DNA of 41,013 nt from Chlamydiota bacterium (lineage in GTDB: Bacteria > Auribacterota > Tritonobacteria > UBA1439), in NCBI GenBank assembly GCA_037133055.1, contig JBAXOY010000012.1, positions 1-41,013 on the forward strand, read 5' to 3'. The translations under genes were made by a program, and so were the position numbers. Below the pieces are notes generated by a model. The model searched no databases. It was not told where the DNA came from and saw nothing but the letters and a program-made list of their open reading frames with translations. The stretch's first letter is position 1; each line of letters starts with the position of its first letter. Below are positions 183-40,718 of the stretch, in pieces.

Positions 183-304
183 TGTTGATTCTTCATTATT
201 TACATGCCGCCGGTTTTCCCTTGCCATCCCGCCTGGGGCACACTACCATAGGGCTCCGAGTTCCGTCCATCGCCCGCACACGTCGCACACGTCAGGTCGA
301 CCCT

Positions 305-3887: not shown

Positions 3888-3905
3888 GGCACTTTCAACT
3901 GTTGC

Positions 3906-4456: not shown

Positions 4457-4497
4457 CGTCAAAGAACCGTTAAAGCATACCCTCCCGGTCCCGATAA

Positions 4498-4506
4498 TGC
4501 TATACT
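4498..4506 (+). promoter_or_regulatory. Putative extended -10 promoter (TG-C-TATACT)
   Basis: TGCTATACT lies 20 nt upstream of the GT2 ATG at 4527. The same or a near-identical motif precedes other transcription units in the window. Confidence 0.5.
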
Positions 4507-4526
4507 ACCACTGATCCTCATGGGAC

Positions 4527-5375: not shown

Positions 5376-5377
5376 TC

Positions 5378-7366: not shown

Positions 7367-8823
7367 AGATCGCGCTCGTTTATCCCGCGCTCATCCCGGG
7401 GGTAAAGCCCCGCTACGGCCTCCAGCCCCTCGGCATCCTCTATCTCGCGGGAAGGCTCAGGGCCGCGGGGCACCAGGTCGTCACGATCGACGGCGAGATC
7501 CTCGGCCTCTCAGTGAAGGAGACCGTGGACGCGGTGATACGTTCGGAGCCGGACCTTGTCGGAATAAGCCTGATGACCCCCCAGTACCCGGCGGGGATCG
7601 AGATCGCGGAGGAAGTGAGGCGCCGCGCCCCGCGCATCGCGGTCTGCGCGGGCGGGGCGCACGTGAACGCGACCCTCGACGAAACGCTGCGCCGCTGCCC
7701 GTCGATCGACTTTCTCGTGTGCGGCGAGGGGGAGGAGACGCTCGCCGAGGCCGCGGCGCGGGGCGGGCGCGGGGAGGGGCTCGCGGGCGTCGCGGGCGTC
7801 GTCTTCCGCGAGGGCGGCGCGATCCGCATAAATCCGCCGCGCCCGTTCATACCTGATCTCGACTCCCTCCCCTTTCCCGACTTCACGATGCTCCCGCTCG
7901 ACCGCTACCGGATCCCGTACCTCCAGGGGCCTCCCATCGCCTCGATGATGCTCAGCCGCGGGTGCCCTTACCGTTGCGCCTTCTGCGACGCGCACGTGAC
8001 CCAGGGGAAGAAACTCAGGACGCATTCCCCGGCGGCCGTCGTGCGCGAGATCGGGCGCTGCGTGCGGTCGCTCCGGATTCATGATTACGCATTCAAGGAC
8101 AGCACCTTCACGCTGGACCGGGCATGGTGCCTCGACCTCCTCGCGCGCCTCCGCGCCGAAAAGCTCGCCATCAGATACCGGTGCAACACCCGCGTCGACC
8201 GGATCGACGGAGAGCTCCTCACCGCCTTGCAACAGTCCGGCTGCACGATCATCCTCTTCGGCGTCGAGTCGGGCTCGCAGGCGATTCTGGACCGGATGCA
8301 GAAGCACACCACCCTCGCCCAGATCCGCGAGGCATTCCGCCTCACCGCCCGGGCCGGAATACGCACCTACGCCTCGTTCATGCTGGGGAATCCCGGGGAG
8401 ACCGACGCCACGGCCCGCGAAACCATCGAGCTTGCGAAGGAGATCAACCCCGACCTCGTGCTCTTCTTCTACACCACCGCCTATCCGGGCACCCAGCTTT
8501 ACGCGGACGCGCTGAAGGAGGGGCTTGTCGCCGAGGACTGGTGGGTCAAGGAGAAGCCGGCGGAGTCCGACTACGCGGTAAGCAAGTGGCTGTCGGGCGA
8601 GGGGGGGAAGCTCCGCATTCCGGGGTTCGACGTCGGGCCGTGGATCAAAAGGGCGTACCAGTCATACTACTTCAGGCCGCGCTACGCGCTGAAGGCGCTG
8701 AAGTCCCTGTTCACGGACCCGTCATACCTGAAGGGGCTCCTCCAGCTCCTCCCGAGCTTCATCGACTTCTCGCGCGGGAAGGGGTCCGTCCCCGGAAGCG
8801 AAAGCGGCGACGGCGAGGAGTGA
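7363..8823 (+). CDS. Cobalamin-binding domain radical SAM protein
   Basis: QPLGILYLA, GGAH, GEGE, DLDSLPFPD, SRGCPYRCAFC, GVESGS; ATGA overlap with the upstream gene. Confidence 0.9.
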   Translation: MKIALVYPALIPGVKPRYGLQPLGILYLAGRLRAAGHQVVTIDGEILGLSVKETVDAVIRSEPDLVGISLMTPQYPAGIEIAEEVRRRAPRIAVCAGGAHVNATLDETLRRCPSIDFLVCGEGEETLAEAAARGGRGEGLAGVAGVVFREGGAIRINPPRPFIPDLDSLPFPDFTMLPLDRYRIPYLQGPPIASMMLSRGCPYRCAFCDAHVTQGKKLRTHSPAAVVREIGRCVRSLRIHDYAFKDSTFTLDRAWCLDLLARLRAEKLAIRYRCNTRVDRIDGELLTALQQSGCTIILFGVESGSQAILDRMQKHTTLAQIREAFRLTARAGIRTYASFMLGNPGETDATARETIELAKEINPDLVLFFYTTAYPGTQLYADALKEGLVAEDWWVKEKPAESDYAVSKWLSGEGGKLRIPGFDVGPWIKRAYQSYYFRPRYALKALKSLFTDPSYLKGLLQLLPSFIDFSRGKGSVPGSESGDGEE

Positions 8824-8851
8824 CCCCGCACCGTCCGTGAGATGTGCGCGC
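8756..8851 (+). repeat. 96-bp direct repeat, copy 1 (last codons and stop of the radical SAM gene plus 28 nt)
   Basis: gcttcatcgacttctcg...gagatgtgcgcgc matches 11827-11922 at 94/96. Confidence 0.95.
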
Positions 8852-8965
8852 AGTCCATGCCGGAAACCAGCTCATCCGCCGTCAGCCCGGTATCGGTGCA
8901 GGAGGCACGAATTCATCTATCCGTCGCGGAAAGCGCGGAGCCCCTAGCTGCTACGCTACGCCCGC

Positions 8966-10162
8966 CTATGTCATGCACCTGGACGCGCCTGCGTCTTCCC
9001 GCTCGAAGACCGTGCGCAGACACAACCCCCACACGAGAACTGCACAGAGCAGGGGGTAATACGTCCACATCAGGTTGTAGAGGGATAGGTTGAAAAAATT
9101 CCCGTCGCGATTCATCGCCAGAATAATAAAAAGGAAAGGGAATGCCCGACCGCTCACCATGCACGTGATCACATAGTATGTAGGGACCAATAGGAGTGCA
9201 TACCAGTAACCAGACCCGTAGGGAAAAATTAAGATGTAGGCAAAACAGACGAGGAAGATCATCACCTTCGCCGCTTCATCCGATCGGGACACATATAACC
9301 TGCGGCATGCCCGGACGGTGATCCCTATAACCAGTATGACCCACCCCCAATAGCTCACCGTCACAATGGAGGACGGCAGGGGGATCCCGATCTTAAGAGA
9401 CACCATCATGAGCGCATCTTTTATAAAGCATCTCGACACCGGACACGATTGCTGCATCTTGTCGGCGCACTCGAGCGCAAGGTTCCTCATCGAATTTCCA
9501 TAAAGGACCGGCTGTGCCGCATATGACAGGAGTAGGACGAGCGCAAGGGCCCCGCACGATCCCCACAGATAGCGGTACTTCCGGGGAGACGGCGAAACGA
9601 GCAGGAGCGAGAGAAACAGCACCTCCGAGGCACGCCAGCTCGCCAGGATCACCACTAGGGAACAAAACCATATCAACCGGCCGCGCAGGAAGCACAGAAA
9701 CGCTCCCCAGAGCACGAGCTGTTCGAACACGGTGCGGTTCCCCACCCAGACGTCGATACTGAGAGGGTTAAAATATGCGAGGAGGCAGAAACAATAGAAA
9801 CCGGCACCGGCCCGTTCACCTGGCATGAATTTTTTCCAGAGCCATCCAAGTGCGATGAGTGCCGCACCTTTGAGCCCCAGGAAGAGATAAAATGCGGTAT
9901 GCCACGTAAACAGTGTGAAGAATGCAAAATAAAGGAGAGAATGCGGCGGATAGACAATCCGCATCCCCGTGTACTGGCCGGCGAGGCGCGTGAGCACCTC
10001 CGCCGAATAAGGGTTCATCCCGGCGAGATATGCCTGCGATGCGTAATACGCATGCCTAAAATCCCACTGATATTCTCCGGTATCTGAGGCAACCTGATAA
10101 AACAGACGGGTAAGATAGCATATGACGAAAAGCCAAAGCAGGCACTTTAACATTCTTCTCAT
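8966..10162 (-). CDS. GT87/DUF2029-like integral membrane glycosyltransferase (GT-C fold)
   Basis: WDFRHAYYASQAYLAGMNPY...YPP after the first TM helix; many hydrophobic segments; visibly lower GC than the flanking genes. Confidence 0.75.
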   Translation of the reverse strand: MRRMLKCLLWLFVICYLTRLFYQVASDTGEYQWDFRHAYYASQAYLAGMNPYSAEVLTRLAGQYTGMRIVYPPHSLLYFAFFTLFTWHTAFYLFLGLKGAALIALGWLWKKFMPGERAGAGFYCFCLLAYFNPLSIDVWVGNRTVFEQLVLWGAFLCFLRGRLIWFCSLVVILASWRASEVLFLSLLLVSPSPRKYRYLWGSCGALALVLLLSYAAQPVLYGNSMRNLALECADKMQQSCPVSRCFIKDALMMVSLKIGIPLPSSIVTVSYWGWVILVIGITVRACRRLYVSRSDEAAKVMIFLVCFAYILIFPYGSGYWYALLLVPTYYVITCMVSGRAFPFLFIILAMNRDGNFFNLSLYNLMWTYYPLLCAVLVWGLCLRTVFEREDAGASRCMT

Positions 10163-10289
10163 GTCATCACACCCCCCCGCGCCGATTTTTAGACAATGAG
10201 ACCAAAGGTCATGGAATTACACTGCAAAGTGCAGCCTGACCTTGGTTGTTTATGCTCCCTTCTTGTGTCTCTGTCAACCGGTGTTGCTG

Positions 10290-11297
10290 CTAATTCACCT
10301 CCTTGCGCCTGAGGCGCTGTTCGTTGATCCTTCGTTGCCGTTCCTCGACGATGGCTGTCCGTTGCCCGGTGTGAGCCTGGTGGGGCGTCACGTAGTCGAT
10401 ACCGGAGTGGTAGTGTTCGTTGTTGTACCACGGCACGTAGACACCGAAGTATGCCTCGGCGTGAACGGCGTCCCGGAAGCGGTCCGGGAACTCCGGGTCG
10501 ACTTTGACGGTACTGAACATCGCCTCGATGAACGGGTTATCGTTGGGGGTCCGTGGACGGGCAAAGAGCTGGGGCATCTTATGATCCTCGAAGACCTGAC
10601 GGACAGGGCGTGCCTTCATCTGACGGCCCCGGTCATTGATGATTTCGGGCCGTTGATCTTCCGGCAACGACAGAACGTTCTCGTTGGCCATGGCTCCCTC
10701 CAGAAGAACCTTGGCCTCAGAGGCACTCAACCAGCATCTGATCCGCCAATGCACGATCTTGCGCGAGTACTCATCCAGCACCATAAACAGGCACAGGTAG
10801 TGACCCTTCGCAGGCGTCAGCAGGTAGCTGATATCCCAGCACCAGCGCTGATTCGCTCCTGTCAGATCCTTGCGTACGGGGGCCACCGAGTGGCCATTGT
10901 GCCGGCGATCCTTCCCTCGCAAGCCCATCAGGCCGACAGCTTTCAGCACCCGGCATGTGGTGCTGAACGAGACAAAGACCAGCCCCTTGTCCCACGCGGT
11001 AACCGTGAGCTCACGATGCGACAGATCCACCAGGTCTTCCCGTCGAGCCAACGCCACCACCGCCTCCCGTTCAGCCGGCAAGAGTCGATGAAGAGGCCAT
11101 TCTGGCCCCGGCTTTCCGTTCTCCAGGCTGTCTCCGGCCCGGCGTGTTCGCTGCCACCGCGTGATACGGCTGCGATGCATCATCAGCCGCGAGCAACTTC
11201 GGCGGCAGGAAACGCCCTGCACAGTGGCCTCCTCGATCAGACCCAGCATATCCATCTTCGTCTCCGTCGCGAGCCATTCGCCGGTTATCTCGCCCAC
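10290..11297 (-). CDS. IS3-family transposase OrfB (DDE integrase core)
   Basis: WCWDISY, IINDRGRQM, PNDNPFIEAMFSTVK (DDE triad), WYNNEHYHSGI. Confidence 0.92.
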   Translation of the reverse strand: MGEITGEWLATETKMDMLGLIEEATVQGVSCRRSCSRLMMHRSRITRWQRTRRAGDSLENGKPGPEWPLHRLLPAEREAVVALARREDLVDLSHRELTVTAWDKGLVFVSFSTTCRVLKAVGLMGLRGKDRRHNGHSVAPVRKDLTGANQRWCWDISYLLTPAKGHYLCLFMVLDEYSRKIVHWRIRCWLSASEAKVLLEGAMANENVLSLPEDQRPEIINDRGRQMKARPVRQVFEDHKMPQLFARPRTPNDNPFIEAMFSTVKVDPEFPDRFRDAVHAEAYFGVYVPWYNNEHYHSGIDYVTPHQAHTGQRTAIVEERQRRINEQRLRRKEVN

Positions 11298-11653
11298 GAA
11301 CCCCCATTCGTTTTTTTTCGCATGATCGCCAGTTCGACGCTCAGATCCGCCATCGCCCGCTCCTTGGCCTCCAGTTCCTGCTTGAGCGCCGTGTACTCGT
11401 CCATCGACACGGTCTTTGGTTTCGGGCCCGGCCTGGCCTTCAGCCGCTCCAACGCACCCTCCTTGACGTGTTCCCGGATACGGGCAAGGTCCGAGGAATA
11501 CAGCCCCTCCCGCCGCAGCAACTCACCGAGCTGCTGCTCGCCTCTTTCGGCTTCCAGGAACAACTGGTATTTCTTCTCCGCCGACAGGTACCGTCGTGTG
11601 CCTGTCACCTTCGCCTTGCCCTCATCCTGTGTCTTGTGCTCGATATCACTCAT
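11285..11653 (-). CDS. IS3-family transposase OrfA (HTH plus coiled coil)
   Basis: RRYLSAEKK..GELLRREGLYSS; AGAGGAAGG RBS before the ATG at 11653; ends RKKT over the A8 tract. Confidence 0.88.
   Translation of the reverse strand: MSDIEHKTQDEGKAKVTGTRRYLSAEKKYQLFLEAERGEQQLGELLRREGLYSSDLARIREHVKEGALERLKARPGPKPKTVSMDEYTALKQELEAKERAMADLSVELAIMRKKTNGGSWAR
11311..11318 (-). promoter_or_regulatory. Putative -1 programmed frameshift site (A8) fusing OrfA and OrfB
   Basis: The minus strand reads CGA AAA AAA ACG. A -1 slip gives ...K N E W G F V G E I T, in frame with OrfB. Confidence 0.75.
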
Positions 11654-11826
11654 GGAATCGCCTTCCTCTTTGCGGCCAAGCGTTCCCCCGGCTGGCTTCG
11701 GTCGCCCTCCGGGCTCCCTGCGCCAGCCGGGGGAACGCATCCCTCAACCATGTAGTGTAATTGTTCCAGCTCTTGGAGTCACGATCTCAGAAACGGCGGG
11801 GAACACTGCCTGATATTCTCAGGTTT

Positions 11827-11922
11827 GCTTCATCGATTTCTCGCGCGGGAAGGGGTCCGTCCCCGGAAGCGAAAGCGGCGACGGCGAGGAGTGACCCCGC
11901 GCCGTCCGTGAGATGTGCGCGC
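11827..11922 (+). repeat. 96-bp direct repeat, copy 2 (orphan 3' end of the 7363-8823 gene)
   Basis: Encodes the same FIDFSRGKGSVPGSESGDGEE* tail; 2 mismatches to copy 1. Confidence 0.95.
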
Positions 11923-11948
11923 CGTCGGCCGCATTCCCCGAAGGCCTC

Positions 11949-13085
11949 TCACTCCTCCCGCGTGACGATCTCCGCGAGGCGGTCCCCAAGGAGCGACAGG
12001 GAGAAGTGCTCCTCGGCGAAGCGGCGGGCCCTCCGCCCCATCGCCTCCCGCAACACCGGGTCCGCGGCAAGCGCGGTCATCGCCCTGACGAACTCCCCCC
12101 TGCTCCCCGCGAGGAACCCCTGCACCCCGTCCGCCACCAGGCGCCTGAGTTCGGCGGTGGGGCTCGCCACCGTGGGAAGCCCGGAGGCGAGGTACTCGAA
12201 ATATTTCGTCGGGCTCTTCGAGTTCACCCAGTCATTCTCCGCCTGCACGAGGGGAAGGAGCCCCACGTCGATCGAATGGAGGAAGGCGGGCATTTCCGTG
12301 AATAGGATCCAGTCGCTCACGGCGATGTCGAGCGTCCCGTACCGCTCCGCGACGAGCGCCTTGACCCTCCCCATCTGCTGCCCCGCACCGGCGATCTTGA
12401 GCGAAACGCCGGGGACCGTGCGCGCGGTCTCCGCGAAGCAGTCGAGCATGAACGCCATGTTCTCGTACATGAGGTCGCCCCAGACGACCCCGTTCCATCC
12501 GAAGACAACCGGGGAGCGCGGGGGGCGCGGGGCGGGCGTGAAGCGCGACGTGTCCACGCCGGTGGGCACGAGGTGAATCTCCCGGTTGAAAACGGCAAGC
12601 CTGTCGGCGAGCAGTTGGGAGGAGACCACGCAGCACTGCGCGCGCCGCGCGACCTCCGCCAGAATCGGCCGGTACTCCGCATGCCCCCAGAAGAACCTGT
12701 TCAGGGACGGCCTTTTGAACAGGCAGTGGATCCCCTCGTCCCAGTCGTCGTAGTCGAGGATGTACCTATTGAGGCCGAGGCGGGCCATCAGGAATGGGGC
12801 GGCGGCGTGGTAGTGGATCTTCTGGATGTACAGGAGGCTGCCCGGCTCGCGAAGGAGTCTCCCGAGCGCCGCAAGGTTCATCCAAAGCTTCTCGCGGTCC
12901 CCCCGGTCCCACATCTCCACCTCGGAGAGCCCGCCGCTCAGATGATCCCTGAACGACAGCACCGCGGTTGAAATGCCGTGTTTCGCGAGCTCGCGGGCGA
13001 AATCGTAGCAGCGGACCCTCACAAACGGATAGTCGCGGCCGCTCAGGCCGATGAACAGGACTCTCCGGTTACTGCCGTCTGGCAT
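11949..13085 (-). CDS. Family 4 glycosyltransferase (GT-B)
   Basis: PTGVDTSRF, KSPTKYFEYLASGLPTVAS, LREAMGRRAR. The start could instead be the in-frame ATG at 13130. Confidence 0.88.
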   Translation of the reverse strand: MPDGSNRRVLFIGLSGRDYPFVRVRCYDFARELAKHGISTAVLSFRDHLSGGLSEVEMWDRGDREKLWMNLAALGRLLREPGSLLYIQKIHYHAAAPFLMARLGLNRYILDYDDWDEGIHCLFKRPSLNRFFWGHAEYRPILAEVARRAQCCVVSSQLLADRLAVFNREIHLVPTGVDTSRFTPAPRPPRSPVVFGWNGVVWGDLMYENMAFMLDCFAETARTVPGVSLKIAGAGQQMGRVKALVAERYGTLDIAVSDWILFTEMPAFLHSIDVGLLPLVQAENDWVNSKSPTKYFEYLASGLPTVASPTAELRRLVADGVQGFLAGSRGEFVRAMTALAADPVLREAMGRRARRFAEEHFSLSLLGDRLAEIVTREE

Positions 13086-13884
13086 ATGCAATGATGTCCC
13101 TGAAGTCCCTGCCCCGCTCATGATAGTCATGGATAAAAGACTCCGTCATCCGATAGCCCCCTTCTACCAGTGCCCGGGCAAGGGTCGACTCGCTGAAGAA
13201 CTGGAGATGATCCCTGTCGTCGAAATCGGGGAGGATCGGCGTTTCGACGATCAGACGCCCTTCGGGAACGCTCCATTTCCTCATTCTCCGCACCACCGCG
13301 ACCGGGTCGCGGAGGTGTTCAAGCACGTGCGACATGACCACGAGATGAAAGTGGCGTCGCGGAAACCGCACCGTTTCTATCGCACCCACGGCGATCCGCA
13401 ACCCGCGGCTCCGGCCCTCCGTGGCCATATCCTCACCAATCTCGACGCCGGTCACTTCCCATCCCCTCCCGGCGAGAATCTCCATCTGTTTCCCCTCCGC
13501 GCACCCGACCTCCAGCGCTCTCCTGGGGGCACCGATTTGACATTCGTATTCGGGAAGGAACCGCTCGAATATGCCGGATCGGTCTTTCACCCAACTCTCG
13601 CTCCAGGTGATGCCCCCGGGCTGGTTGAACTGCCGCTTCCTCTGTTCAAGGTAGCCGCTGTGATACCTTCCAATCAGTTCCTCGATGGGGGGGCCGTCGA
13701 GGGCGAAGACCATTCCGCAGGCAGTGCAGCGGCCGCAGCGGCCGGCGCCGCATTGTTCCCACTGCCCGCCCCCGCAGACGGTGCACTGTGTCCGCGGCAC
13801 CCGCACCGCCGGCGCGCCGGTGATTTTCCCGAGAACACGGAGACCGTATGCGATCACCCTCCTCACCCGCGCGTGCAGTTCCAT
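13069..13884 (-). CDS. Class I SAM-dependent methyltransferase with an N-terminal Cys-rich (Zn-ribbon-like) segment
   Basis: CTVC...CTACG; LEVGCAEG; GVEI; SHVLEHLRDP; GRLIVETP. Confidence 0.85.
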   Translation of the reverse strand: MELHARVRRVIAYGLRVLGKITGAPAVRVPRTQCTVCGGGQWEQCGAGRCGRCTACGMVFALDGPPIEELIGRYHSGYLEQRKRQFNQPGGITWSESWVKDRSGIFERFLPEYECQIGAPRRALEVGCAEGKQMEILAGRGWEVTGVEIGEDMATEGRSRGLRIAVGAIETVRFPRRHFHLVVMSHVLEHLRDPVAVVRRMRKWSVPEGRLIVETPILPDFDDRDHLQFFSESTLARALVEGGYRMTESFIHDYHERGRDFRDIIAYARRQ

Positions 13885-13913
13885 CGCCGCCTATCCATTG
13901 CCCGACGGCGCCC

Positions 13914-15116
13914 TTATCGTCCAGAGAGGCGCCGTTGCAGCATGCCGATGCTCCGGCGCAGCCAACCGCCCCTGCCCTCGGCGGACTGTTTCGCCAGATG
14001 TTCGCGATAACGCCGGTGGACATCCTGATTGAGCCACCAGTCATCACAGCACCTCGCGCAGTTGATCGCGGCAAAATACTGATCCGTTTTCGAGAGTGTC
14101 GCGGCCTTCCTGCGGAATTCCGCGTAGCCGGCCGACTGCCAGATTTTCCTAAAACTCTGCGCATGGACGGAGCCCAGGGGAAATCTGTCCGCCTTGCAGC
14201 AGGGAACCACGTCGCCGTTCGCAAGGATCCGGCACTCGTACCACCCCATCACGCAGGACAGCGAATCGATCAGATCCGAGTGGTAGATCCCCTCCTCCGC
14301 CCTGCTGTTGCGGACTTTCGTGATGAACTGATCGAAGCCGAGCAGGTTCGGCTGCCACGGCCTGAGAGCCCCCTGCAACTCCACACTGCAGCGGTTCAGC
14401 GCCGCAATGACAAACGCAATTTCCGCTCTGTTGAGGAGGAGATGTTTCAGGAACCCGCTCTCCACGTCGACCGGTTGGAACCAGCACTGGCTCGCTCCGA
14501 TTTCAATCGCCAGCCGGACCATCAATTCCACCTGTCGCACATTCTGGTTGCAGATCACGTTCATAATCACAAGCTCCATGGGGCGGCCGGCCGGGGAGAG
14601 GCGGCCTGCGGCCTTCAGGAGCGATAGTATCCTGCCGAAGGAACCCCTCGCGACGCCTGGATGCATGCGGGAGTAGATCTCCTCGTCCGCCGCCCACAGG
14701 CTCACCACAAGGCGGTCAACCCCGGCGGAGACAATCCGGCGGATCGTTTCTTCATCGGCCAGGGTGAGGTTGCTGATCAGCGTGATCTTGATGCCCCTCT
14801 CCGCCGTTTCGCGGAGGACGCTGAAAAGGTCCGGATACAGGAGCGGGTCCCCCCCCCCGCTGTAGATAATCCGCTCCACCCCCATCGCGGCGGCATCCTC
14901 GACGATATGCCGCACCATCTCGTAGGGAAGGGATAACCGCGTCGCCCAGTGGGGGAGAACCGCGGGGGGGGGGATAAGGGGGGGGCGGTGCCCGCAGCAG
15001 AGGCAGGGGGGCGTGCATGGGGTGGTGAGGGCGATATGAAGCTGCTCGGGGCCGCAAAGCGCCCGTGCGCCGTCCGCGATCCCGTCCAGCCTCATCTGCG
15101 TGCGGTCGGGCAGCAT
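13914..15116 (-). CDS. Radical SAM protein with SPASM/twitch domain
   Basis: CTPPCLCC (CxxxCxxC), SGGGDPLL, and C-terminal CVMGWYECRILANGDVVPCC...CARC. Confidence 0.85.
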   Translation of the reverse strand: MLPDRTQMRLDGIADGARALCGPEQLHIALTTPCTPPCLCCGHRPPLIPPPAVLPHWATRLSLPYEMVRHIVEDAAAMGVERIIYSGGGDPLLYPDLFSVLRETAERGIKITLISNLTLADEETIRRIVSAGVDRLVVSLWAADEEIYSRMHPGVARGSFGRILSLLKAAGRLSPAGRPMELVIMNVICNQNVRQVELMVRLAIEIGASQCWFQPVDVESGFLKHLLLNRAEIAFVIAALNRCSVELQGALRPWQPNLLGFDQFITKVRNSRAEEGIYHSDLIDSLSCVMGWYECRILANGDVVPCCKADRFPLGSVHAQSFRKIWQSAGYAEFRRKAATLSKTDQYFAAINCARCCDDWWLNQDVHRRYREHLAKQSAEGRGGWLRRSIGMLQRRLSGR

Positions 15117-15118
15117 GC

Positions 15119-17434
15119 CTAAATCCAGTCCTCGCGGGAGAACGCAATCACGGAGAGCGAATGTTTCGGCAGTCCGAGCCGAAGCATACCGTCACCCCCG
15201 CGGTTCTCGCGGGCGCGGAAGCTGCGCTCCCAGGACGTAACCTGGTGGGGGCCTGGCAGGGTGCTGCTGCAGTCCGGCGTCTCGGCTTGCACAACCCTCA
15301 TGGTATAGTGCCTCGCGTCGAACCCCCTGATGTCGAGCCGCATGTCGAGCGGGGCGTGGATGCTCCGGTTGATCACGGAGAGCGCCAGTTTCTTTCCCTC
15401 CGCGTCCTTGACCCCCACCACGTCGCAGGGAAGGACATGCTCATTCGCGGGGACAAATCCGAGGGCCGGGGTCGCGCATTCTGCCGCCGCGGCGTGCGTG
15501 TGCACGAGCGTGGCGCCCGCGAACCTGTTGCAGAGGTCGTGCATGAGGGACTGGGGATGGCGCAGCGGCATCCCCTCCCCATCCTGCGGGCTCACAAGGC
15601 TGGAGAAAAGAGGGTGAGAAAGCGTCATGCGGGCCGAGAGGAACAGCTCGGGCCTCCTGAGGCACGCATGGAGGACACCCGCCTCGTACAGGGCGGCGGC
15701 GAAGGTGTGGTTCCTCCCCCACTCCACCGAATCCGGACAGCGGTCATGCATCTGATGCGTCCCGTGCACCACGTTCGGCACGTTCGTAAAATTGCAGCCG
15801 TACTCGCTCAGGGCGATGGGAATATCCTTCTTACCAGTGATTCTTCCGGCCTGCGCCGCCAGCGCCTCGAGGCTGCGCTCGACGAACTGCGGGGCCGCGA
15901 TGAGCGCCGCCCACGTGTCGTCCTCGGTGGGAATATGATAGTCGAGGGTAATGTTCAGGATCGGAAGAGAGGCATGGTGGATCGACAGGAAATCGAACGT
16001 CTCGGGGGGAAGGGCGAAGATCGCCTCGTTCCAGCGCGGGTCGCGGTACCGGGTGAACGCGCCGTTTTCGAGGCAGCACTGCACGCCGATCCTTGCCGAG
16101 GGGTCCGCGCCCCTGACGGCGCGGGAGAACTCCCCGCAGGCGCGCGCGTAGCGCTCGGGGGTCCAGGGGAAATCGACCCCGAGGGGATGGAACTTGTCGT
16201 AGTAGAGCTCGTGCCCTATTTCAAGATAAAGCGGCCCCCGGTAGCGCTCCCTGACCCAGGAGACCCATCCCGCGGCCTCTTCCGGCGTGCCCGTCCCCGC
16301 GTTGAGCGTGAGCATCGGCGCCGCGCCCAGCGCGCCGCACATCTGGAGAAACTCGGCCGGGCCGAAATGGGGATAGAGCTTCGGTTTTTTAAGGTCCGTT
16401 CCGAACACCTGCGGCGTTCGGGATTCCCCGACCGCCTCCCGCCAGTGGAAGTAGTCCGCGTGCTGCATTCCCGGGTACCGGAGCAGCCTGAAGCCGAAAG
16501 GCTCGATGGCGGCGAGAGCGGACGCATTGAGCCGCTTCCCGGGGCGGTCGCACAGCCAGAAACCGTCGCCGAACATATCGACGTTGCTGCCGAAGATCGT
16601 TTCCGGGATCCGCCGCAGCTCCCTCCCCGCATCCACCGTCACGAGGGCGGGCACGGGGGTGTACGCCTCCTTCCTCACCACAGGGCCGAGCGCGAGCTTC
16701 TCCCGGTATCGCTCCTTGTACGCGGCGACGACATCCCCCGGGAGGCCCATCGCCTCCGCCCTGCCGTGCTCGAACCAGATGGCGCTCGAGCAGATCTCCT
16801 CGACCTTGAGGAGATCGTGCGAGACGAACACGATCGTCTTCCCCTCGTCCTCGCAGAACTTCCGCATCGTCCGGAAGCATTTGGTCTGGAAGGAAAGGTC
16901 GCCGACCGCCATGACCTCGTCCATGAGGAGGATGTCGAAGGGGACCATGACGGCGATGGCGAAGCCGAGGCGCATGTTCATGCCGGCCGAGTAGGTCGCG
17001 AGCTTCGCGTTCATGAACTTGCCGAGGTCGGCGAACTTGACGATGTCGTCGTAGATACGGTCTATCTGGGCCTTGGAGAGGCCGAGGATGGCGCCGTTCA
17101 GGTAGACGTTCTCCTGGCCCGTGAGCTCGAAGTTGAACCCCGCCCCGAGGGAGAGGAGCGAGGAGACCTTCCCGTTGGTGAAGACCTCTCCCTCCGTGGC
17201 CGACGACACCCCGGCGAGAATGGTCAGGATGGTGCTCTTCCCGGACCCGTTCGGCCCGATGATGCCGATGCACTCGCCCTTCTCCATTGAGAATGAGATG
17301 CCGTCCAGCGCCCAGAACTCCTGCGCCTTCCCCTGGGAGACGAGAAACGGCAGGATGTTCTTGATGAGCGCGGGCTTCTCGAAATAGACCCGGTATTTCT
17401 TCCGGAGATCCCTGACCCTGATGCTGTAGTCCAT
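15119..17434 (-). CDS. wzt: Polysaccharide ABC exporter ATPase (Wzt/TagH-like) fused to a C-terminal GH51-like glycoside hydrolase domain
   Basis: FWALDGISF, Walker A GPNGSGKS, ELTGQENV, YSAGM, Walker B LLMDE, VSH. These are followed by about 510 aa with RYPG..AD..HW, FGPAEFL..C, NAGTGTPEEAAGWV, EIGHE, LSEYG, VINR and LPKHS. Confidence 0.88.
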   Translation of the reverse strand: MDYSIRVRDLRKKYRVYFEKPALIKNILPFLVSQGKAQEFWALDGISFSMEKGECIGIIGPNGSGKSTILTILAGVSSATEGEVFTNGKVSSLLSLGAGFNFELTGQENVYLNGAILGLSKAQIDRIYDDIVKFADLGKFMNAKLATYSAGMNMRLGFAIAVMVPFDILLMDEVMAVGDLSFQTKCFRTMRKFCEDEGKTIVFVSHDLLKVEEICSSAIWFEHGRAEAMGLPGDVVAAYKERYREKLALGPVVRKEAYTPVPALVTVDAGRELRRIPETIFGSNVDMFGDGFWLCDRPGKRLNASALAAIEPFGFRLLRYPGMQHADYFHWREAVGESRTPQVFGTDLKKPKLYPHFGPAEFLQMCGALGAAPMLTLNAGTGTPEEAAGWVSWVRERYRGPLYLEIGHELYYDKFHPLGVDFPWTPERYARACGEFSRAVRGADPSARIGVQCCLENGAFTRYRDPRWNEAIFALPPETFDFLSIHHASLPILNITLDYHIPTEDDTWAALIAAPQFVERSLEALAAQAGRITGKKDIPIALSEYGCNFTNVPNVVHGTHQMHDRCPDSVEWGRNHTFAAALYEAGVLHACLRRPELFLSARMTLSHPLFSSLVSPQDGEGMPLRHPQSLMHDLCNRFAGATLVHTHAAAAECATPALGFVPANEHVLPCDVVGVKDAEGKKLALSVINRSIHAPLDMRLDIRGFDARHYTMRVVQAETPDCSSTLPGPHQVTSWERSFRARENRGGDGMLRLGLPKHSLSVIAFSREDWI

Positions 17435-17437
17435 GGT

Positions 17438-18292
17438 TCAGATGAGATCGACGAGCTCGCTCTCCCTTTTCATGAACAGGTGATAGGCGCAGAAGAACAG
17501 GACAAGGCTGAAGAGGACCGCCTGAAGAACCATCAGCCACAAGGGATAGTAGAGGGTAATGTCCACCACCATATTCGGGATGGAGGACGGGAGGATGGCG
17601 AGCCGGTACATGCAGAACAGGTCGTACATCGGGTTCAGCATGAAGAGGTCCACGAGCCACGGGAAGCCCTTCTTGACCGCCCCATCGGCCACCAGGTCCA
17701 CCTCGTAGAACACGCCGGAGAAATAGAACCATACCAAAAGGAGGATCTCCACGACGTATTTCACGTCGCGGTAGAACACCTGGAGGGCCGAGGTGATGAG
17801 CACGAACCCCGCGACCATGACGAGGGTCAGGAGGACAATCGCCGGGAGAAAGACGATCTGCGGGGGCAGGGGCATCCAGATGCCCTTGGCGAAACCGTAG
17901 AGGAGCACCAGCACGACCAGCACGACCAGCGAGAGGATGAAGTTGATGAAATTGGAGAGCACGATCGAGAGCGGGATGATCTCCCGCGGGAAATATACCT
18001 TCTTGAGTATGCCCGCATTGTCGATGAGCGAGGTTGTGGAGCCCGCGATGCTCATATTGACGAACTGCCAGACGAAGAGGGCCGTCACGATGGAAAGGGG
18101 CGGGATCGGCCTCTGGAAGAGGAAGGCGAAGAGGAACCAGAAGACCAGCGCCATCCAGAGCGGCACGAAAAACGCCCAGAGAAACCCGAGGAAGGCGTAC
18201 TTGTACTGCACCTTCAGGTTCTTCAGCGCCAGGTGAAACAGGAGCTCACGGTGCGTGGTGCACAGGAGCTTCAACCGCGCGAACACCTTCAC
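17438..18292 (-). CDS. wzm: Polysaccharide ABC exporter permease (Wzm/TagG-like)
   Basis: LKVQYKYAFLGFLW, ILKKVYFPREIIP, VFYRDVKY, LNPM; about six TM segments; adjacent to the wzt-like ATPase; GGAGAG before the GTG start. Confidence 0.9.
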   Translation of the reverse strand: MKVFARLKLLCTTHRELLFHLALKNLKVQYKYAFLGFLWAFFVPLWMALVFWFLFAFLFQRPIPPLSIVTALFVWQFVNMSIAGSTTSLIDNAGILKKVYFPREIIPLSIVLSNFINFILSLVVLVVLVLLYGFAKGIWMPLPPQIVFLPAIVLLTLVMVAGFVLITSALQVFYRDVKYVVEILLLVWFYFSGVFYEVDLVADGAVKKGFPWLVDLFMLNPMYDLFCMYRLAILPSSIPNMVVDITLYYPLWLMVLQAVLFSLVLFFCAYHLFMKRESELVDLI

Positions 18293-18329
18293 TTCGCTGT
18301 CCCTCTCTCCGGACCGAAAAATAAAGTCC

Positions 18330-18338
18330 AGTATAGCA
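18330..18338 (-). promoter_or_regulatory. Putative extended -10 promoter (TG-C-TATACT) upstream of wzm
   Basis: Plus-strand agtatagca reads TGCTATACT on the minus strand, in the 73-nt gap before wzm. Confidence 0.5.
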
Positions 18339-18365
18339 CACCGCAGGCCGTTTCCACACGTCTCT

Positions 18366-20129
18366 TCAACGAAATAAATGCCGCGCGACCACGCCGATCC
18401 CGGATGCGACCCTTTGGATAAAAGAGCGGGGCATCTCTTCCCCGAGCGGCTTCACGCACCCCGCGATCTGGTCCATCGCGGCAACGATGACCACCGGCCG
18501 CTTCATCCCGGCGTCGTGGACCGCCGAGGTGATGACTCCGGTCTGCCCAAGGATGAGGGCCGTGAACGCGACGAACCGCACCGCCTGCCGCCGCTCGACG
18601 CCCAGCCGGCGGTGGACAGCGTCCGCGATATCGCGGAGGGCCCTCCGGCCGTTCGTGAGTTTCCAGAACAGGGCGAGGGAATCCCGATACTGCGCGAGCG
18701 TCTCGCGCTGGCGTTCCTGCGGGATCGCCGCGTTGAAATCGGACCAGAATGAATAGACCAGCGCCATGCCGCAGAGCCGGTACTGGTACAGGTCAAGCGC
18801 GGGGGAGTTCCTGACCGGCACGTCATCGAGAAGCGAGTTCGGCACGAAGTTTATCCGGTGGTGGTGGTAGTCCTCGAGCCCCTCGGCCAGCACCATCCCG
18901 AGTTTCGGGGCCTCCTCGTGGAGCTTCGTCCCCATGTGGGGGGTCGAAAACTGCCCCGTGTAGAGCGGGAACGGCATCGGGTGAAAATAATCATACCAGG
19001 GCAGGCCCGAGACCAGCTCGTCGATGAACCGCGCCTGGGAATAATAGCCGGAGATCGTCTCCCCCGGATTAAACGCCATGTAGGTGAAGAGGGGCGACAT
19101 GCCGTGCGCCTTGTGGAGGCGCGCCACCTCCCTGATGACCTGGAGGTCCTCGTCCTTCTCGACCTGCGCAAATGTCTCCGGGTTCGCGCTCTCTATCCCC
19201 ACCTCGAGCCCGATGCAGCCCGCCTGCTTCAGGAGGTCCATCAGGTCGGGGTTCCGCGCGATGTGGGAGGCGCGCGTCAGGCCGGTCCACCGCACCGGGA
19301 GCCGTTCCTCGATGATCAGCCTGCAGAGGCGCTCGATGTAGCGCCGGTCGAGCATCAGGTTGTCGTCCCAGAAATGGAACTGGGCGAGGCCGAGCCGCGC
19401 GATCGAGGCCTTCATCTCGGCGATGACGTTTTCCGGGCTCCGCCACCTGACGCGGCGGCCCCACATGAGCGGCGAGCCGCAGTAGGTGCAGCCGTAGGGG
19501 CAGCCCCTGGAGCCGATGATGGGAAGACGCCTCCCCCCGACCACGTGGAGAGGGGAGTCGTACGATTCCATCGGAAGCAGGTCCCACGCGGGAAACGGCA
19601 ATGCGTCGAGGTCCTCGATGAGCGGCCGCTGCGGATTGATGCGCGGCACGCCGCGATCCTTCCATGCCAGTCCCGCAATATCCGCCGGCCCCCTCCCCTC
19701 CCCGGCGAGCGCCTGGAGGAGCTCCACGAGTGTCTCCTCGCCCTCGTGCGTCACGCAGTAGTCTGCGGTATCGAGCGCCTCGGAGGGGAAGATGGTCGCG
19801 TGGATGCCCCCGTGGACGATGGCGATGCGGGGGGCGCGCGCGCGCAGCATCCGGGAAAGGGCATGCGCCGCGGGGGCCTGGCAGGTCCAGTAGGTGATTC
19901 CCACCACGCCGGGGCTGCCGGCGAGGACGCGCTCGAGTATCCCGGAGACGGAGAGCTTAAGCGCCTGCCCGTCCACGATCCGCACGCGGAGCCCCGGGAG
20001 GCGCTCCCGGGCATAGGCGGCGAGATAGGCGAGCCCGAGGGGCAGCACCCGCTTGTGCCGCTCGTTCGCCGGGAGCGGCGGCTGCACGAGCGCGAGTTCG
20101 ATCGGCGGCATGGGTGCCATGGCGGTCAC
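18366..20129 (-). CDS. Cobalamin-binding domain radical SAM protein with C-terminal extension
   Basis: LPLGLAYLAA, GGIH, HEGE, DLDALPFPAWD, SRGCPYGCTYC, WDDN, GIESA; GTGA overlap with the upstream stop. Confidence 0.9.
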   Translation of the reverse strand: MTAMAPMPPIELALVQPPLPANERHKRVLPLGLAYLAAYARERLPGLRVRIVDGQALKLSVSGILERVLAGSPGVVGITYWTCQAPAAHALSRMLRARAPRIAIVHGGIHATIFPSEALDTADYCVTHEGEETLVELLQALAGEGRGPADIAGLAWKDRGVPRINPQRPLIEDLDALPFPAWDLLPMESYDSPLHVVGGRRLPIIGSRGCPYGCTYCGSPLMWGRRVRWRSPENVIAEMKASIARLGLAQFHFWDDNLMLDRRYIERLCRLIIEERLPVRWTGLTRASHIARNPDLMDLLKQAGCIGLEVGIESANPETFAQVEKDEDLQVIREVARLHKAHGMSPLFTYMAFNPGETISGYYSQARFIDELVSGLPWYDYFHPMPFPLYTGQFSTPHMGTKLHEEAPKLGMVLAEGLEDYHHHRINFVPNSLLDDVPVRNSPALDLYQYRLCGMALVYSFWSDFNAAIPQERQRETLAQYRDSLALFWKLTNGRRALRDIADAVHRRLGVERRQAVRFVAFTALILGQTGVITSAVHDAGMKRPVVIVAAMDQIAGCVKPLGEEMPRSFIQRVASGIGVVARHLFR

Positions 20130-22584: not shown

Positions 22585-25461
22585 CTACTTCCGGTAGACC
22601 TTCTTCTCGCCGAACACCTGGACGCGGTAGTTGAAGGTGTCGCTCACGTACACGCGCCCGTCCGCGATGAAGATGCCGATCGGGGTGTTGAAATCCCCCG
22701 GCTTGAACCCCTTCGCGGACCATAGGGCGAGGAGGGTCCCTTCGGGGCTGAAGATCTCCACGCGGTTGTTCCGGCTGTCCGTCACCCAGACCCTCCCCGC
22801 GGCGTCGACCGCGACGAACGGCTCGGTGTAATACTCCTCCCACCCGAGCACGCCGAACTGCCCGAGAAGCATCCCCTTCGTGTCGAACTTCTGCACGCGC
22901 TTGTTGGCGGTGTCGGTGACGTAGACCACCTCGCCCCGCACCTCGCGCTGTTTCTTGGCCTCGTCGGCGGGGGCGATGACCCCGTCCGGATGGATCGCGA
23001 TCCCCACCGGCTCCTTGAACTCTCCCGGCCCCTCTCCCTGCTCGCCCCAGACGAGGAGGGGCTTGCCGTCCCGGGTGAACTTCTGCACGCGGTGCCGCCC
23101 CGTGTCCGCCACGTAGAGGTTCCCCTCCCGGTCGAACGCCATCCCCTTCGGGGCCCAGAACCCCCCGGCGCCGCCCTCCCACTGCTTCACAAACTTCCCC
23201 TCGCCGTCGAACTTCTGTATCCTGTGGTTCCACGTGTCGGAGACATAGACAAAGCCCTCTCCGTCAACGGCAATCCCCATCGGCTCCTTGAACTGCGACG
23301 CGCCGCTCCCCGGCCCCCCGACGCAGAGGAGAAGCTTCCCCCCGCCGTCGAACTTCTGCCAGCGATGGTTCTTGGTGTCTGCGACGTACACGGCGCCCTT
23401 CGCATCGGCCCAGATGCCCCGCGGCTCGTCGAACCGCCCCTTCGAGGAACCGCGTTCCCCGAACTCGCGCTCGGGGCTGACCTCGCCGATTATCGCATAC
23501 TCCTTCGGAATCACGGGCGCGGTCCTCGCGGCGGCCGGCGCCTCGACCTCGGCCGGGGTGGGGCCGCCCTTGTCACCGAGGAGGTCCTTTCGCACATAGA
23601 AGGCGATGTCCTGGGAGCCGAGGATGCTCCACACCTTCCTGCCGAAATAGTACTGGAGGAGCGCGTTCATCCGGTAGGACGCGTCCGCGAGGAAGACGGA
23701 AAACGGCGAGCGGCCGAAGACGCTCTCGGCCCATCCCCGCCCGGGGTTCTTCAGGCTGCCCAACGGGCTCGGGACCCACCACTCCCTGAGTTTCATCCGC
23801 ATTTCCCGGTAGTGCGGCTCGAGGACGGCGCTGAAGTCCTTGCGCTTGTCCCAGTCGACCGCCACCACCATCTTGCTCGGAGCCGTGAACGCCCCGGGGT
23901 GGAACCAGTCCTTGTAGTCGCGGAGATACCAGGTGTACGGCCAGGTGGACTCGCCCTGTATCCCCATGGGGAACTGGAACCCCTTCCCGGTCTCCTCGGC
24001 GAGGCCGGCGATGATCCTGAGCGTCTTCTGGATATCCACGGACGTCTGGGTGTAAACCATGCACTCCACGGGGTTCGCCTCGTTGACGAAGCAGAGTCGG
24101 AGCGAGGCCTGCAGGAAGAGGAGAAGACCCGCCCCCAGGAGGGTGGCGTACAGACATGTCTTTCGCCTGAACCGCTCCGCCTCGAGTAACTCGCCGAGGA
24201 TCACGGCCGCCCAGAGCACCATCGGCATGAGCACGTGCATGAGGAGCCAGGGCACCTTTTCGCCCGCGTACGAGTAGAGAAGGACGCTCGTCCAGCTCCA
24301 GTAGGAGAGGAACGCGGGGAACCGCCTCCCCTCTCTGAGGTAGGCGCACGTGGCCGCCATCCCGATCACCAGGACATAGAGGACGAAGACGATGTGCAGG
24401 GTGCTCGTCATGTGGAATATCTTGTCCCACGGCTCGACCGGGAGATCGAGGTTCCAGAAAAGCATCAGCGGGAGCGCCACGGCGGTGGAGACGACCATGA
24501 CGATGCGCGAGAGGCGCCTCCGCGCGAGGAGTCCGGCGATCCCGGCGAAGAGGACGGCGAGGAGCGGGAGCTCGTAGGTCGCCGCGATCGGGCAGAAATA
24601 GGTGAACGGGCCCTTGATGCGCTGGATTCTGTCCTGGTACATCCAGTACCCGAGCGACTTCCGGTAGAGGCCGTCGATGAACCCCGGCATGTTGTGGAAG
24701 AACGAGGTGAAGAAGATGAAGAAGAGGGCGAAAAAAATACCGAGTGAGACGAGCGCGTCAAGGGGAGCGATCGGCCATCCACCCGCCCTGCCCGCGGGCC
24801 GGTCCGCGGGCGCCCCATCCCTCCCGAAGATCCGCTCGAAGATCAGCATGAAGACGCCGAAGGTGACGAATATGAAGAGGAACATGTACGAGTTCTCTTT
24901 GACGCAGAACATCAGGGCGAACGCCGCGGCGGACCCGTAGAGCCAGCCGCGGGCGCGGTCGCGGAGCCAGTTCACGAAGAGCGCCACCGAGAAGAGCGCC
25001 CAGAAGGCGACGAAGATGTCCTCCCGGAAGAAGCGCGAGAAGTACATGAAGGTGGGCGAAACCGCGTAGAGGACCGCCGCCGAGAGGCTCCCGGCCTTCC
25101 CGAGCTCCTTCCGGAACAGCCAGGCGCATCCGACGACCCCCACGCCGAAAAGCGCGGCGGACATGCGGGCGACAAAATCGCTGATCCCGAAGAGCGTGAA
25201 GAGGAGCGCGTCCAGGTAGAACATGAACGGCCCGTGCATCATCGGGTCGTACTTGTAGCCGCGCCCGTCGAACAGGTACCAGGAGTAGGTCGAGTAGAGG
25301 CTCTCGTCGTGGTGGAACGGCTTGAAGGAGAGCCCGTAGAAGCGGGTCACGACGGTGAAGACGAGGACCGCGGCGAAGACGATGCGGAACCAGTCAATGC
25401 GTATCGTCACGTACCCCCTGTCGGGGGCGGCGGTCACTTCGACGGGGCTTGTGCGGCTCAT
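22585..25461 (-). CDS. TIGR03663/Agl23-like GT-C membrane protein with C-terminal NHL-repeat beta-propeller
   Basis: FHHDESLY...YKYDPMMHGPF, FSRFFREDIF, KENSY, YTQTS; NHL repeats F.EP.GIA.D..G.VYV.DT.NHR.QKF. Confidence 0.82.
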   Translation of the reverse strand: MSRTSPVEVTAAPDRGYVTIRIDWFRIVFAAVLVFTVVTRFYGLSFKPFHHDESLYSTYSWYLFDGRGYKYDPMMHGPFMFYLDALLFTLFGISDFVARMSAALFGVGVVGCAWLFRKELGKAGSLSAAVLYAVSPTFMYFSRFFREDIFVAFWALFSVALFVNWLRDRARGWLYGSAAAFALMFCVKENSYMFLFIFVTFGVFMLIFERIFGRDGAPADRPAGRAGGWPIAPLDALVSLGIFFALFFIFFTSFFHNMPGFIDGLYRKSLGYWMYQDRIQRIKGPFTYFCPIAATYELPLLAVLFAGIAGLLARRRLSRIVMVVSTAVALPLMLFWNLDLPVEPWDKIFHMTSTLHIVFVLYVLVIGMAATCAYLREGRRFPAFLSYWSWTSVLLYSYAGEKVPWLLMHVLMPMVLWAAVILGELLEAERFRRKTCLYATLLGAGLLLFLQASLRLCFVNEANPVECMVYTQTSVDIQKTLRIIAGLAEETGKGFQFPMGIQGESTWPYTWYLRDYKDWFHPGAFTAPSKMVVAVDWDKRKDFSAVLEPHYREMRMKLREWWVPSPLGSLKNPGRGWAESVFGRSPFSVFLADASYRMNALLQYYFGRKVWSILGSQDIAFYVRKDLLGDKGGPTPAEVEAPAAARTAPVIPKEYAIIGEVSPEREFGERGSSKGRFDEPRGIWADAKGAVYVADTKNHRWQKFDGGGKLLLCVGGPGSGASQFKEPMGIAVDGEGFVYVSDTWNHRIQKFDGEGKFVKQWEGGAGGFWAPKGMAFDREGNLYVADTGRHRVQKFTRDGKPLLVWGEQGEGPGEFKEPVGIAIHPDGVIAPADEAKKQREVRGEVVYVTDTANKRVQKFDTKGMLLGQFGVLGWEEYYTEPFVAVDAAGRVWVTDSRNNRVEIFSPEGTLLALWSAKGFKPGDFNTPIGIFIADGRVYVSDTFNYRVQVFGEKKVYRK

Positions 25462-25500
25462 CTAATCCTCCCGGGATGCGCGGTTCAGTCTGGAACAGGG

Positions 25501-25509
25501 ATTATCGCA
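25501..25509 (-). promoter_or_regulatory. Putative extended -10 promoter (TG-C-GATAAT)
   Basis: Plus-strand attatcgca, about 40 nt upstream of the ATG at 25461. Confidence 0.35.
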
Positions 25510-25562
25510 CAATCCCGGCAGGCATAAAAGCCGAAAAACAGCCGAAACAGCCGAAAACCAGT

Positions 25563-25778
25563 TACAACGGATGGGGGGAGATCCTCTTGACGGCCCCGCC
25601 GTCGCGCAGGATCGAGGAAGTCAGGGGCGTGCGGATCTGACCCCTCTTCCCGTTCCTGGTGAGGATTCCGCTCCTGGGGAGGGCCCTCGCGGCTCTCGAG
25701 CGGCGAACCTGTGATGGGCTGCTCAAGCGGTTCGCGGGATTCGTGATACTGGTGATGAGGAAGGGTGCGGAGCCCTGA
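25563..25778 (+). pseudogene. Probable 3'-terminal remnant of a gene (methyltransferase-like C-terminus) with an in-frame stop
   Basis: One frame reads YNGWGEILLTAPPSRRIEEVRGVRI*PLFPFLVRIPLLGRALAALERRTCDGLLKRFAGFVILVMRKGAEP* with coding-like codon usage. No convincing 5' part is present. Confidence 0.5.
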
Positions 25779-25784
25779 CCCCGA

Positions 25785-25823
25785 CTCAAATCTCAGATAT
25801 TACTCCCTAATCTGAGATCTGAG
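25785..25823. terminator. Inverted repeat hairpin between convergent 3' ends (possible terminator)
   Basis: ctcaaatctcagat (25785-25798) pairs with atctgagatctgag (25810-25823) at 13/14, with an 11-nt loop and no U-tract. Confidence 0.4.
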
Positions 25824-25827
25824 ATCC

Positions 25828-27201: not shown

Positions 27202-27295
27202 ACGGGTATGATACCGGATACGGGGGCCGGAATCAACCCGCAACACCCGCAACACCGATATCCCGTAATCCCGCGCGCCCCCGGCGCGGGAAATA

Positions 27296-27304
27296 TGCTA
27301 TAGT
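27296..27304 (+). promoter_or_regulatory. Putative extended -10 promoter (TG-C-TATAGT)
   Basis: Lies in the divergent gap, 41 nt upstream of the ATG at 27346, which is preceded by an AGGGAG RBS. Confidence 0.45.
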
Positions 27305-27345
27305 GGCGGCGGTCTGTCCGACCGCCCCGCCCCAGGGAGAACCCG

Positions 27346-29649: not shown

Positions 29650-29693
29650 AAGGACGCGCCCGGTCTCCCGGTGAACGGATAGCTTTCCGTCCG

Positions 29694-33130: not shown

Positions 33131-33146
33131 ATGCTTTCTCCACACC

Positions 33147-33962: not shown

Positions 33963-33964
33963 GC

Positions 33965-35122: not shown

Positions 35123-35126
35123 GAGA

Positions 35127-40691: not shown

Positions 40692-40718
40692 CCCTTTCTC
40701 CTCGCGTCCCACCGCGCG

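Follow-up and report, generated by a model that had tools for sequence, protein, structure and literature searches.

A Wzt-type exporter ATPase fused to a GH51-fold domain with decayed catalytic residues in Candidatus Tritonobacteria

The window analysed here, the 41,013 nucleotides of contig JBAXOY010000012.1 (assembly GCA_037133055.1), carries on its minus strand, at 15119-17434, a single open reading frame (ORF) of 771 amino acids (aa) in which a Wzt-type exporter ATPase is joined in frame to a domain with the fold of glycoside hydrolase family 51 (GH51). The fusion is real, it is present throughout the class to which the window belongs, its sequences group as a single clade in each of the two domain trees, and the catalytic residues of its GH51-fold domain have decayed. 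From these comparisons we consider it probable, at about 0.6, that the GH51-fold domain reads a lipid-linked glycan on the cytoplasmic side without catalysis, replacing the small Wzt_C module of other exporters.

The fusion gene and the fold of its C-terminal domain

The ATPase part of the fusion shows a full set of ATP-binding cassette (ABC) motifs, namely Walker A GPNGSGKST (aa 60-68), signature YSAGM (aa 148-152), Walker B LLMDE (aa 169-173), and H-loop SHD (aa 205-207), all of them unchanged in the 13 aligned fusions. The closest NCBIfam models for aa 1-245 were TagH and Wzt/RfbE, with scores under the cut-off, and the protein has the intact ABC motifs, the adjacent wzm gene, and the glycan locus expected of a Wzt. 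A sequence-only reading of this DNA had described a complete ABC ATPase running in frame into a GH51-like part, and this description was borne out by the single ORF with its intact motifs; the GH51-type and C-terminal motifs that it had listed were also located where it had placed them (Table 1). The same reading had named in advance a check of the junction against reads. Contigs from two of the four sequencing runs compared, namely X2, which shares its study with a possible source run, and X4, which belongs to a different study, cover the linker (16661-16699) from end to end, with more than 31 letters on either side and zero differences, and no indel was found in any of the four runs. In addition, full-length ATPase-GH fusions of 766-773 aa were found in 8 further 90% clusters, with P0043 as one more. 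Misassembly or read-through as the source of the fusion was ruled out by these clusters, by the genomes of the class, and by the spanning contigs.

The C-terminal 513 aa matched solved GH51 enzymes (E 6e-16), and a profile that included relatives matched GH51 chains at E 3e-94. No Pfam match above cut-off was obtained for aa 259-771: PF06964 reached 16.1 bits against a cut-off of 27, and PF22848, listed among the precomputed annotations, was nevertheless unmatched in the genome search. The Wzt_C family (PF14524) had no match on the fusion protein, and within the genome of the window (G000) it was detected only on the wzt genes of contigs C48 and C69. The domain, modelled from 129 sequences, gave a predicted local distance difference test score (pLDDT) of 95.8 and a predicted template modelling score (pTM) of 0.95, and adopted the TIM barrel plus beta-sandwich on which the sequence-only reading had made its assignment depend. 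Its best structural match was the GH51 enzyme of Thermotoga maritima (Foldseek E 4e-35; Z 38.5, root-mean-square deviation 2.4 over 446 residues). The full-length model, built from only 13 sequences, had a pTM of 0.67 and showed two parts joined by a low-confidence linker, the relative placement of which is unreliable. A homodimer prediction for aa 262-760 scored 0.00 with its controls unfolded, and was counted neither for nor against anything.

Decay of the active site and distribution of the fusion

The active site was compared between 13 non-redundant fusions (near-copies having been dropped from 27 distinct full-length sequences) and 150 free-standing relatives. In the profile alignment, H408-E409 correspond to N171-E172 and E544 to E281 of the T. 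maritima enzyme, with numbering counted from the printed alignment. The residue preceding the acid/base, Asn in 150/150 free relatives, is Asn in none of the 13 fusions and His in 12 of them. The Tyr of the HNAY motif (137/148 free relatives) and the Glu29-type residue (110/148) are likewise absent from all 13 fusions, the latter position being Asp in 12, and the second Gly of PGG, present in 146/146 free relatives, persists in 3/13. At the nucleophile column, the 147 free relatives with a residue there all have Glu, whereas the fusions have E/Q/F/D/P in 7/2/1/2/1 cases, six of the seven Glu coming from one genus-level clade; on the tree, this requires at least 3 changes between Glu and non-Glu and at least 5 residue changes. 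A catalytic score based on eight residues ranged from 0 to 5 in the fusions and from 6 to 8 in all 142 scorable free relatives, and P0043, a full-length fusion, retains 0/8 of the key residues.

Among the class genomes, Glu occupies the nucleophile position in four (G000, G004, G007, and G008), Asp in three (G002, G003, and G005), Gln in G006, and Phe in G001. Replacement of Glu by Asp at the nucleophile cripples retaining glycosidases. The earlier statement that both Glu are kept holds for the window copy, with E409 on strand 4 and E544 on strand 7, and fails for the family, in which the nucleophile is Asp, Gln, or Phe in 5/9 class genomes. Even the window copy has only four of the nine residues conserved in GH51 according to the available part of PMC4666033 (Glu29, Arg69, Asn74, Asn174, Glu175, His244, Tyr246, Glu294, and Gln351); the other five positions are D286, Q324, H408, S489, and T604, the equivalents of Asn74 and Gln351 being placed by motif count. 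In the enzyme of that study, as far as the available text goes, Glu-to-Gln changes at either catalytic site abolished activity.

The domain was found in 9/9 genomes of the class and in all five of its genera, with one gene per genome, always on this Wzt. The frame extends over about 770-840 codons in eight of these genomes, whereas in the fragmented G002 it is divided between the ends of two contigs; no internal stops were detected. Named records with the fusion belong to Candidatus Auribacterota, one of them being Candidatus Tritonobacter lacicola, of the class Candidatus Tritonobacteria; the main text of the paper describing the Candidatus Tritonobacter taxon, in the part available, contains neither "wzt" nor "arabinofuranosidase" (PMC9324843). 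Outside the class, the phylum is represented by 70 genomes, 16 of which gave domain matches, all of them weak (E 2e-16 or worse); the one looked at, L058, has a 697-aa frame. A single-domain scan of metagenomes returned three weak and uninformative partial matches (E 4e-6 to 2e-5), which the domain profiles did not recover in that form, and no longer proteins (899-2565 aa) carrying the domain were found among 8000 scored, which is weak evidence.

In the domain tree the fusions formed one clade, with a support of 100 in FastTree (73 rows, the input including 59 free domains out of 151 with a suitable length) and of 100/100 in IQ-TREE (22 rows). This clade is placed among free-standing GH51-like proteins, a group that branches apart from classical GH51. 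A Wzt Walker A was present in none of the 150 free relatives, and 102/147 had a hydrophobic N-terminal stretch, taken as a crude proxy for a signal peptide. The free-standing subfamily (P0011-P0013 and P0044-P0191) is large and has a consensus of PGG..SD, GNE, HNAYAP, and TEWG, and its members often combine a length of about 700 aa with an additional N-terminal domain. They are also apart from classical GH51 in the tree, fall far below the sole NCBIfam model matched, and seem uncharacterised.

In the ATPase tree (43 rows), the nine fused nucleotide-binding domains formed a clade (support 98), with the bare 247-aa Wzt of L007, on a long branch, as sister (97). From these trees, a single gain on the class stem would be the simplest reading, with a loss in L007 as the alternative. 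On this reading, an uncharacterised GH51-like enzyme from a mostly secreted group would have been joined a single time to a bare Wzt in the stem lineage of the class.

The exporter locus and its neighbourhood

The window is a glycan biosynthesis locus with GT4, GT2, GT-C, and methyltransferase genes (GT, glycosyltransferase family), and seven related fusion loci had enough flanking sequence for comparison. The sequence-only reading had proposed a search for the same architecture beside wzm elsewhere, and wzm was indeed found directly upstream in 7/7, with the SPASM radical S-adenosylmethionine (SAM) gene and the GT4 gene downstream, also in 7/7 each. An ortholog of the cobalamin (B12)-dependent radical-SAM gene lies upstream of wzm in 6/7 loci, with 52-80% identity, and an ortholog of the GT4 gene is on the contig of the fusion in 8/9 class genomes. 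The GT-C/NHL gene at 22585-25461 appears near the exporter in 3/7 loci, with 64-77% identity. As the conserved core consists of one glycosyltransferase and two radical-SAM enzymes, the product is probably a glycan that is short or simple and contains an unusual sugar. It may end on lipopolysaccharide or, by way of the many nearby GT-C enzymes, on proteins; LpxC and seven Wzy_C/ligase-type proteins are also encoded in the genome. Besides the fusion, the genome has two wzt genes with an ordinary Wzt_C (G000:C48:15688-16866 and G000:C69:1924-3180), and two Wzt_C matches were found in each of 8/9 class genomes; therefore, most of the class retains three glycan exporters.

Table 1. Positions in the window of the fusion gene parts, their motifs and key residues, and the adjoining genes.
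Feature	Position	Strand	Evidence or remark
GT4-family glycosyltransferase gene of the conserved cassette	11949..13130	(-)	
SAM-dependent methyltransferase gene, outside the conserved core	13069..13884	(-)	present in 1/7 related fusion loci
Radical SAM/SPASM enzyme gene	13914..15116	(-)	PF04055 + PF13186; begins 2 bases after the wzt stop
GH51-fold domain, aa 259-771	15119..16660	(-)	(beta/alpha)8 barrel + beta-sandwich; ends in W770
LPKHS motif	15158..15172	(-)	C-terminal
VINR motif	15365..15376	(-)	C-terminal
LSEYG motif	15797..15811	(-)	GH51-type
E544, nucleophile-position Glu	15803..15805	(-)	aligns with T. maritima E281; present here, variable in the family
S489, GH51 Tyr246-type position beside the nucleophile	15968..15970	(-)	Tyr lost
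H408-E409, acid/base-position Glu and preceding residue	16208..16213	(-)	profile alignment; Glu retained, Asn replaced by His
EIGHE motif	16208..16222	(-)	GH51-type
RYPGM motif	16466..16480	(-)	GH51-type
Linker, aa 246-258	16661..16699	(-)	pLDDT <50 at aa 245-257, full-length model
Wzt-type ABC ATPase domain, aa 1-245	16700..17434	(-)	PF00005, E 5e-19
wzm, ABC-2 permease gene	17438..18292	(-)	PF01061, E 1e-10; ends 3 bases before wzt
Cobalamin-dependent radical SAM enzyme gene, candidate sugar-modifying	18366..20129	(-)	PF02310 + PF04055

The locus of the bare sister Wzt, from another organism (L007:9271-14957), comprises wzm, the Wzt itself (247 aa, with the same N-terminal motif), a GT-B-like protein with a coiled tail, and then homologous GT4 and B12 radical-SAM genes. 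In this one locus no SPASM enzyme was found. No GH-like domain was detected in 20 kb around this Wzt, nor in the genome, the completeness of which is unestablished. A split or in-trans form of the GH domain beside the bare Wzt was considered and rejected, as the next ORF is not GH-like; it resembles a GT-B protein with a coiled tail and had no Pfam match at 1e-5. This coiled protein may be a chain terminator, and comparison with the L007 cassette offers a natural control for the contribution of the GH domain.

Other features of the window are worth recording. The 5' part of the SPASM gene (window 15000-15060) shows Pro/Ala/Thr-rich changes with respect to its orthologs, and the X4 contig differs from the window at 5 letters over 15000-15237, the only difference listed (15031) lying outside the fusion gene; sequencing errors in the window may account for these changes and differences. 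The 20 kb of glycan locus at 182-20129 contain four cobalamin-dependent radical-SAM genes (182-1660, 2445-3887, 7363-8823, and 18366-20129) and one SPASM gene. Between a GT2 gene and a B12 radical-SAM gene, positions 5378-7366 encode an FrhB-like Fe-S oxidoreductase (4Fe-4S, FrhB_N, and FrhB_C) fused to a C-terminal SAM methyltransferase. An IS3-like element at 10290-11740 consists of two overlapping minus-strand ORFs, of which the second encodes an integrase (PF00665). Eight consecutive A in the overlap resemble a -1 frameshift site, and no clear terminal inverted repeats were found for the element. Finally, the region 22585-40712 encodes five GT-C (PMT_2) membrane proteins, with NHL-propeller fusions at 22585-25461 and 37644-40712, a Golvesin-type domain at 30452-33145, and an Ig domain at 27346-29649, and these fusion genes suggest a protein-glycosylation system.

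A probable glycan reader, its rivals, and known systems

In characterised Wzt proteins, a C-terminal jelly-roll binds the terminal group of the glycan and is required for export, and the GH51-fold domain occupies the position at which those proteins carry it (PMC9445017 and PMC11231755, in the portions available). If the domain is a reader, the GT4 and the two radical-SAM enzymes would assemble a lipid-linked glycan with a modified sugar at its non-reducing end, this sugar would be bound in what was once an exo-glycosidase pocket, binding would load only the finished product into Wzm, and export would then be powered by ATP hydrolysis. The pocket of GH51 enzymes holds a terminal sugar, and such a pseudo-glycosidase reader is the most economical reading because a domain derived from enzymes of this kind sits at the glycan-binding position of Wzt. 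The sequence-only reading had offered two interpretations, a hydrolase fold co-opted as reader and an exporter that trims or proofreads its glycan. The former is favoured by the variable nucleophile and the loss of helper residues, whereas the latter is weakened, as it was based on both Glu being kept, which is true in only 4/9 class genomes.

Part of the evidence weighs against a non-catalytic reader that uses the old pocket. The acid/base-position E409 is retained in 12/13 fusions, and the window copy also keeps E544, Arg319, and His486. The L007 Wzt has no C-terminal domain despite its homologous wzm, GT4, and B12 radical-SAM genes, and related machinery can dispense with a GH domain, given that the bare Wzt sits with homologous cassette genes. 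With scaling to the free enzymes, a test for extra conservation of the pocket loops was not positive (ratio 1.18, compared with 1.26 for the sandwich and 1.14 for the helices), which leaves pocket-specific selection unsupported, and the list of fusion-specific residues is skewed to loops, since these vary most in the free set. Furthermore, a crude heptad scan gave no clear sign of a strong or conserved coiled-coil terminator among the cassette genes; in this unvalidated predictor, five cassette proteins scored 0-1.45, a TPR protein 1.6, and the positive comparison P0192 1.88. The loci of capped-glycan systems encode a chain terminator that has a coiled-coil ruler; because none was evident here, the ligand of the domain may be a modified sugar on a short glycan and not a terminal cap.

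The four retained residues, which are shared by all six sequences of the genus-level clade, together with the near-universal E409, are the main argument for a domain that is still a glycosidase in the Glu-keeping lineages, or one that works in a substrate-assisted manner with the acid/base only, and that trims, edits, or clears unfinished glycan at the cytoplasmic face. A His-Glu pair at the acid/base is known from GH26, and this would fit too. We nevertheless regard a working glycosidase as quite unlikely. The helper Asn and Tyr are gone in all 13 fusions, the nucleophile has been replaced several times, P0043 is devoid of any catalytic residue, and invariance within the genus-level clade says little, as 225/518 columns are invariant there. 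The retained Glu544 is weak evidence of catalysis, since 13/32 Glu columns of that clade show no variation in any case. In favour of a glycosidase, ABC-dependent glycan loci are known to include depolymerases, for example VexL, the Vi-antigen lyase of capsule loci, although this one is periplasmic and separate (PMC6003464, in the part available). It has in common with the present domain the recruitment of a degradative fold to a glycan-export locus, and differs from it in being an active beta-helix lyase, whereas the domain described here is fused to a cytoplasmic ATPase and is likely inactive.

A non-catalytic role away from the old pocket, either as a scaffold or spacer docking the GT4 or radical-SAM enzymes or through glycan binding by the sandwich, appears unlikely, though several observations speak for it: conservation relative to the free enzymes peaks in the sandwich, W770 is invariant in 13/13 fusions and has a Trp counterpart among the last three residues in only 3/150 free relatives, the SPASM enzyme accompanies the domain in all seven loci and was missing beside the single bare Wzt, and the ESM Atlas has clusters of Wzt-like ATPases joined to biosynthetic enzymes. 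Against it, the fusions share new residues absent from the free enzymes (e.g., H408, Y412, D413, H416, R462, N494, R602, and W770), and many of the invariant ones are polar or aromatic and lie just after barrel strands 4-8, on the face that bears the pocket. In addition, conservation of the beta-to-alpha (pocket) loops was 0.385, compared with 0.377 in helices and 0.309 in the bottom loops, the catalytic strands being relaxed relative to the free enzymes (ratio 0.83). Glycan binding at the old pocket is thus plausible. That the domain is a functionless vestige of an incidental fusion is very improbable; it does evolve much faster than the ATPase (30-40% compared with 58-70% identity between lineages) and a bare sister Wzt exists, but the domain is kept at full length without internal stops across the class, G002 apart, and 44/518 of its columns are invariant across the 13 fusions.

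Compared with Wzt proteins bearing a carbohydrate-binding module (PF14524; A. aeolicus WzmWzt, E. coli O9a, and Klebsiella O12/O4), as described in the available parts of the literature, the fusion shares the Wzm-Wzt pair in a glycan locus and a cytoplasmic extra domain that follows the ATPase in tandem, and selecting the finished glycan is likely the same job. It differs in having an enzyme-derived domain of 513 aa, a TIM barrel plus sandwich, instead of a jelly roll of about 150 aa, and in lacking both PF14524 and an evident conserved coiled-coil terminator. As Wzt_C is absent, the fusion is a member of the Wzt family without being one of these module-bearing proteins, even though it would work like one if the reader interpretation holds. 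With the GH51 alpha-L-arabinofuranosidases of clan GH-A (T. maritima 3ug3/4atw and G. stearothermophilus 1pz3) the domain has in common the fold and, in the window copy, the two Glu on strands 4 and 7, the Arg, and the His. It is set apart from them by 20% identity, the incomplete set of conserved residues, the variable nucleophile, and the attachment to an exporter, and its nearest relatives are the mostly secreted, uncharacterised GH51-like proteins and not the classical enzymes.

Clusters in the ESM Atlas contain Wzt-like ATPases fused to a mutase, an NTP transferase, an acetyltransferase, and a methyltransferase, so a fusion per se is unsurprising; the matches of the Atlas feature search were all plain ABC ATPases at 0.88 and are leads only. 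The surprise is a degradative fold that has been disarmed and kept class-wide. No description of a glycosidase-fold domain on a Wzt was found in the full-text literature searched, most subscription papers, including the key Wzt census, being outside its scope.

This gene would be a clear natural case of an enzyme turned pseudo-enzyme, with Glu, Asp, Gln, Phe, and Pro all occupying the nucleophile position in orthologs. Annotation pipelines will count it as an arabinofuranosidase, as the names of source records do, and plant-polysaccharide breakdown in these genomes will be overstated. The domain should serve as a soluble probe for a surface glycan conserved across an uncultured class and likely made with the help of two radical-SAM enzymes. 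It is improbable, in our view, that the Glu-keeping lineages still cut or transfer the terminal sugar, which would make theirs an exporter with a built-in editing enzyme and that of their sister lineages a pure reader; if they did, the class would present, on a single transporter, a natural gradation between enzyme and binding module, with the sugar read being a product of radical-SAM chemistry. The reader domains of Wzt are small jelly-roll modules in the cited papers, as far as their available parts describe them, and a clan GH-A fold in this role, if confirmed, would be a second, independent route to exporter specificity.

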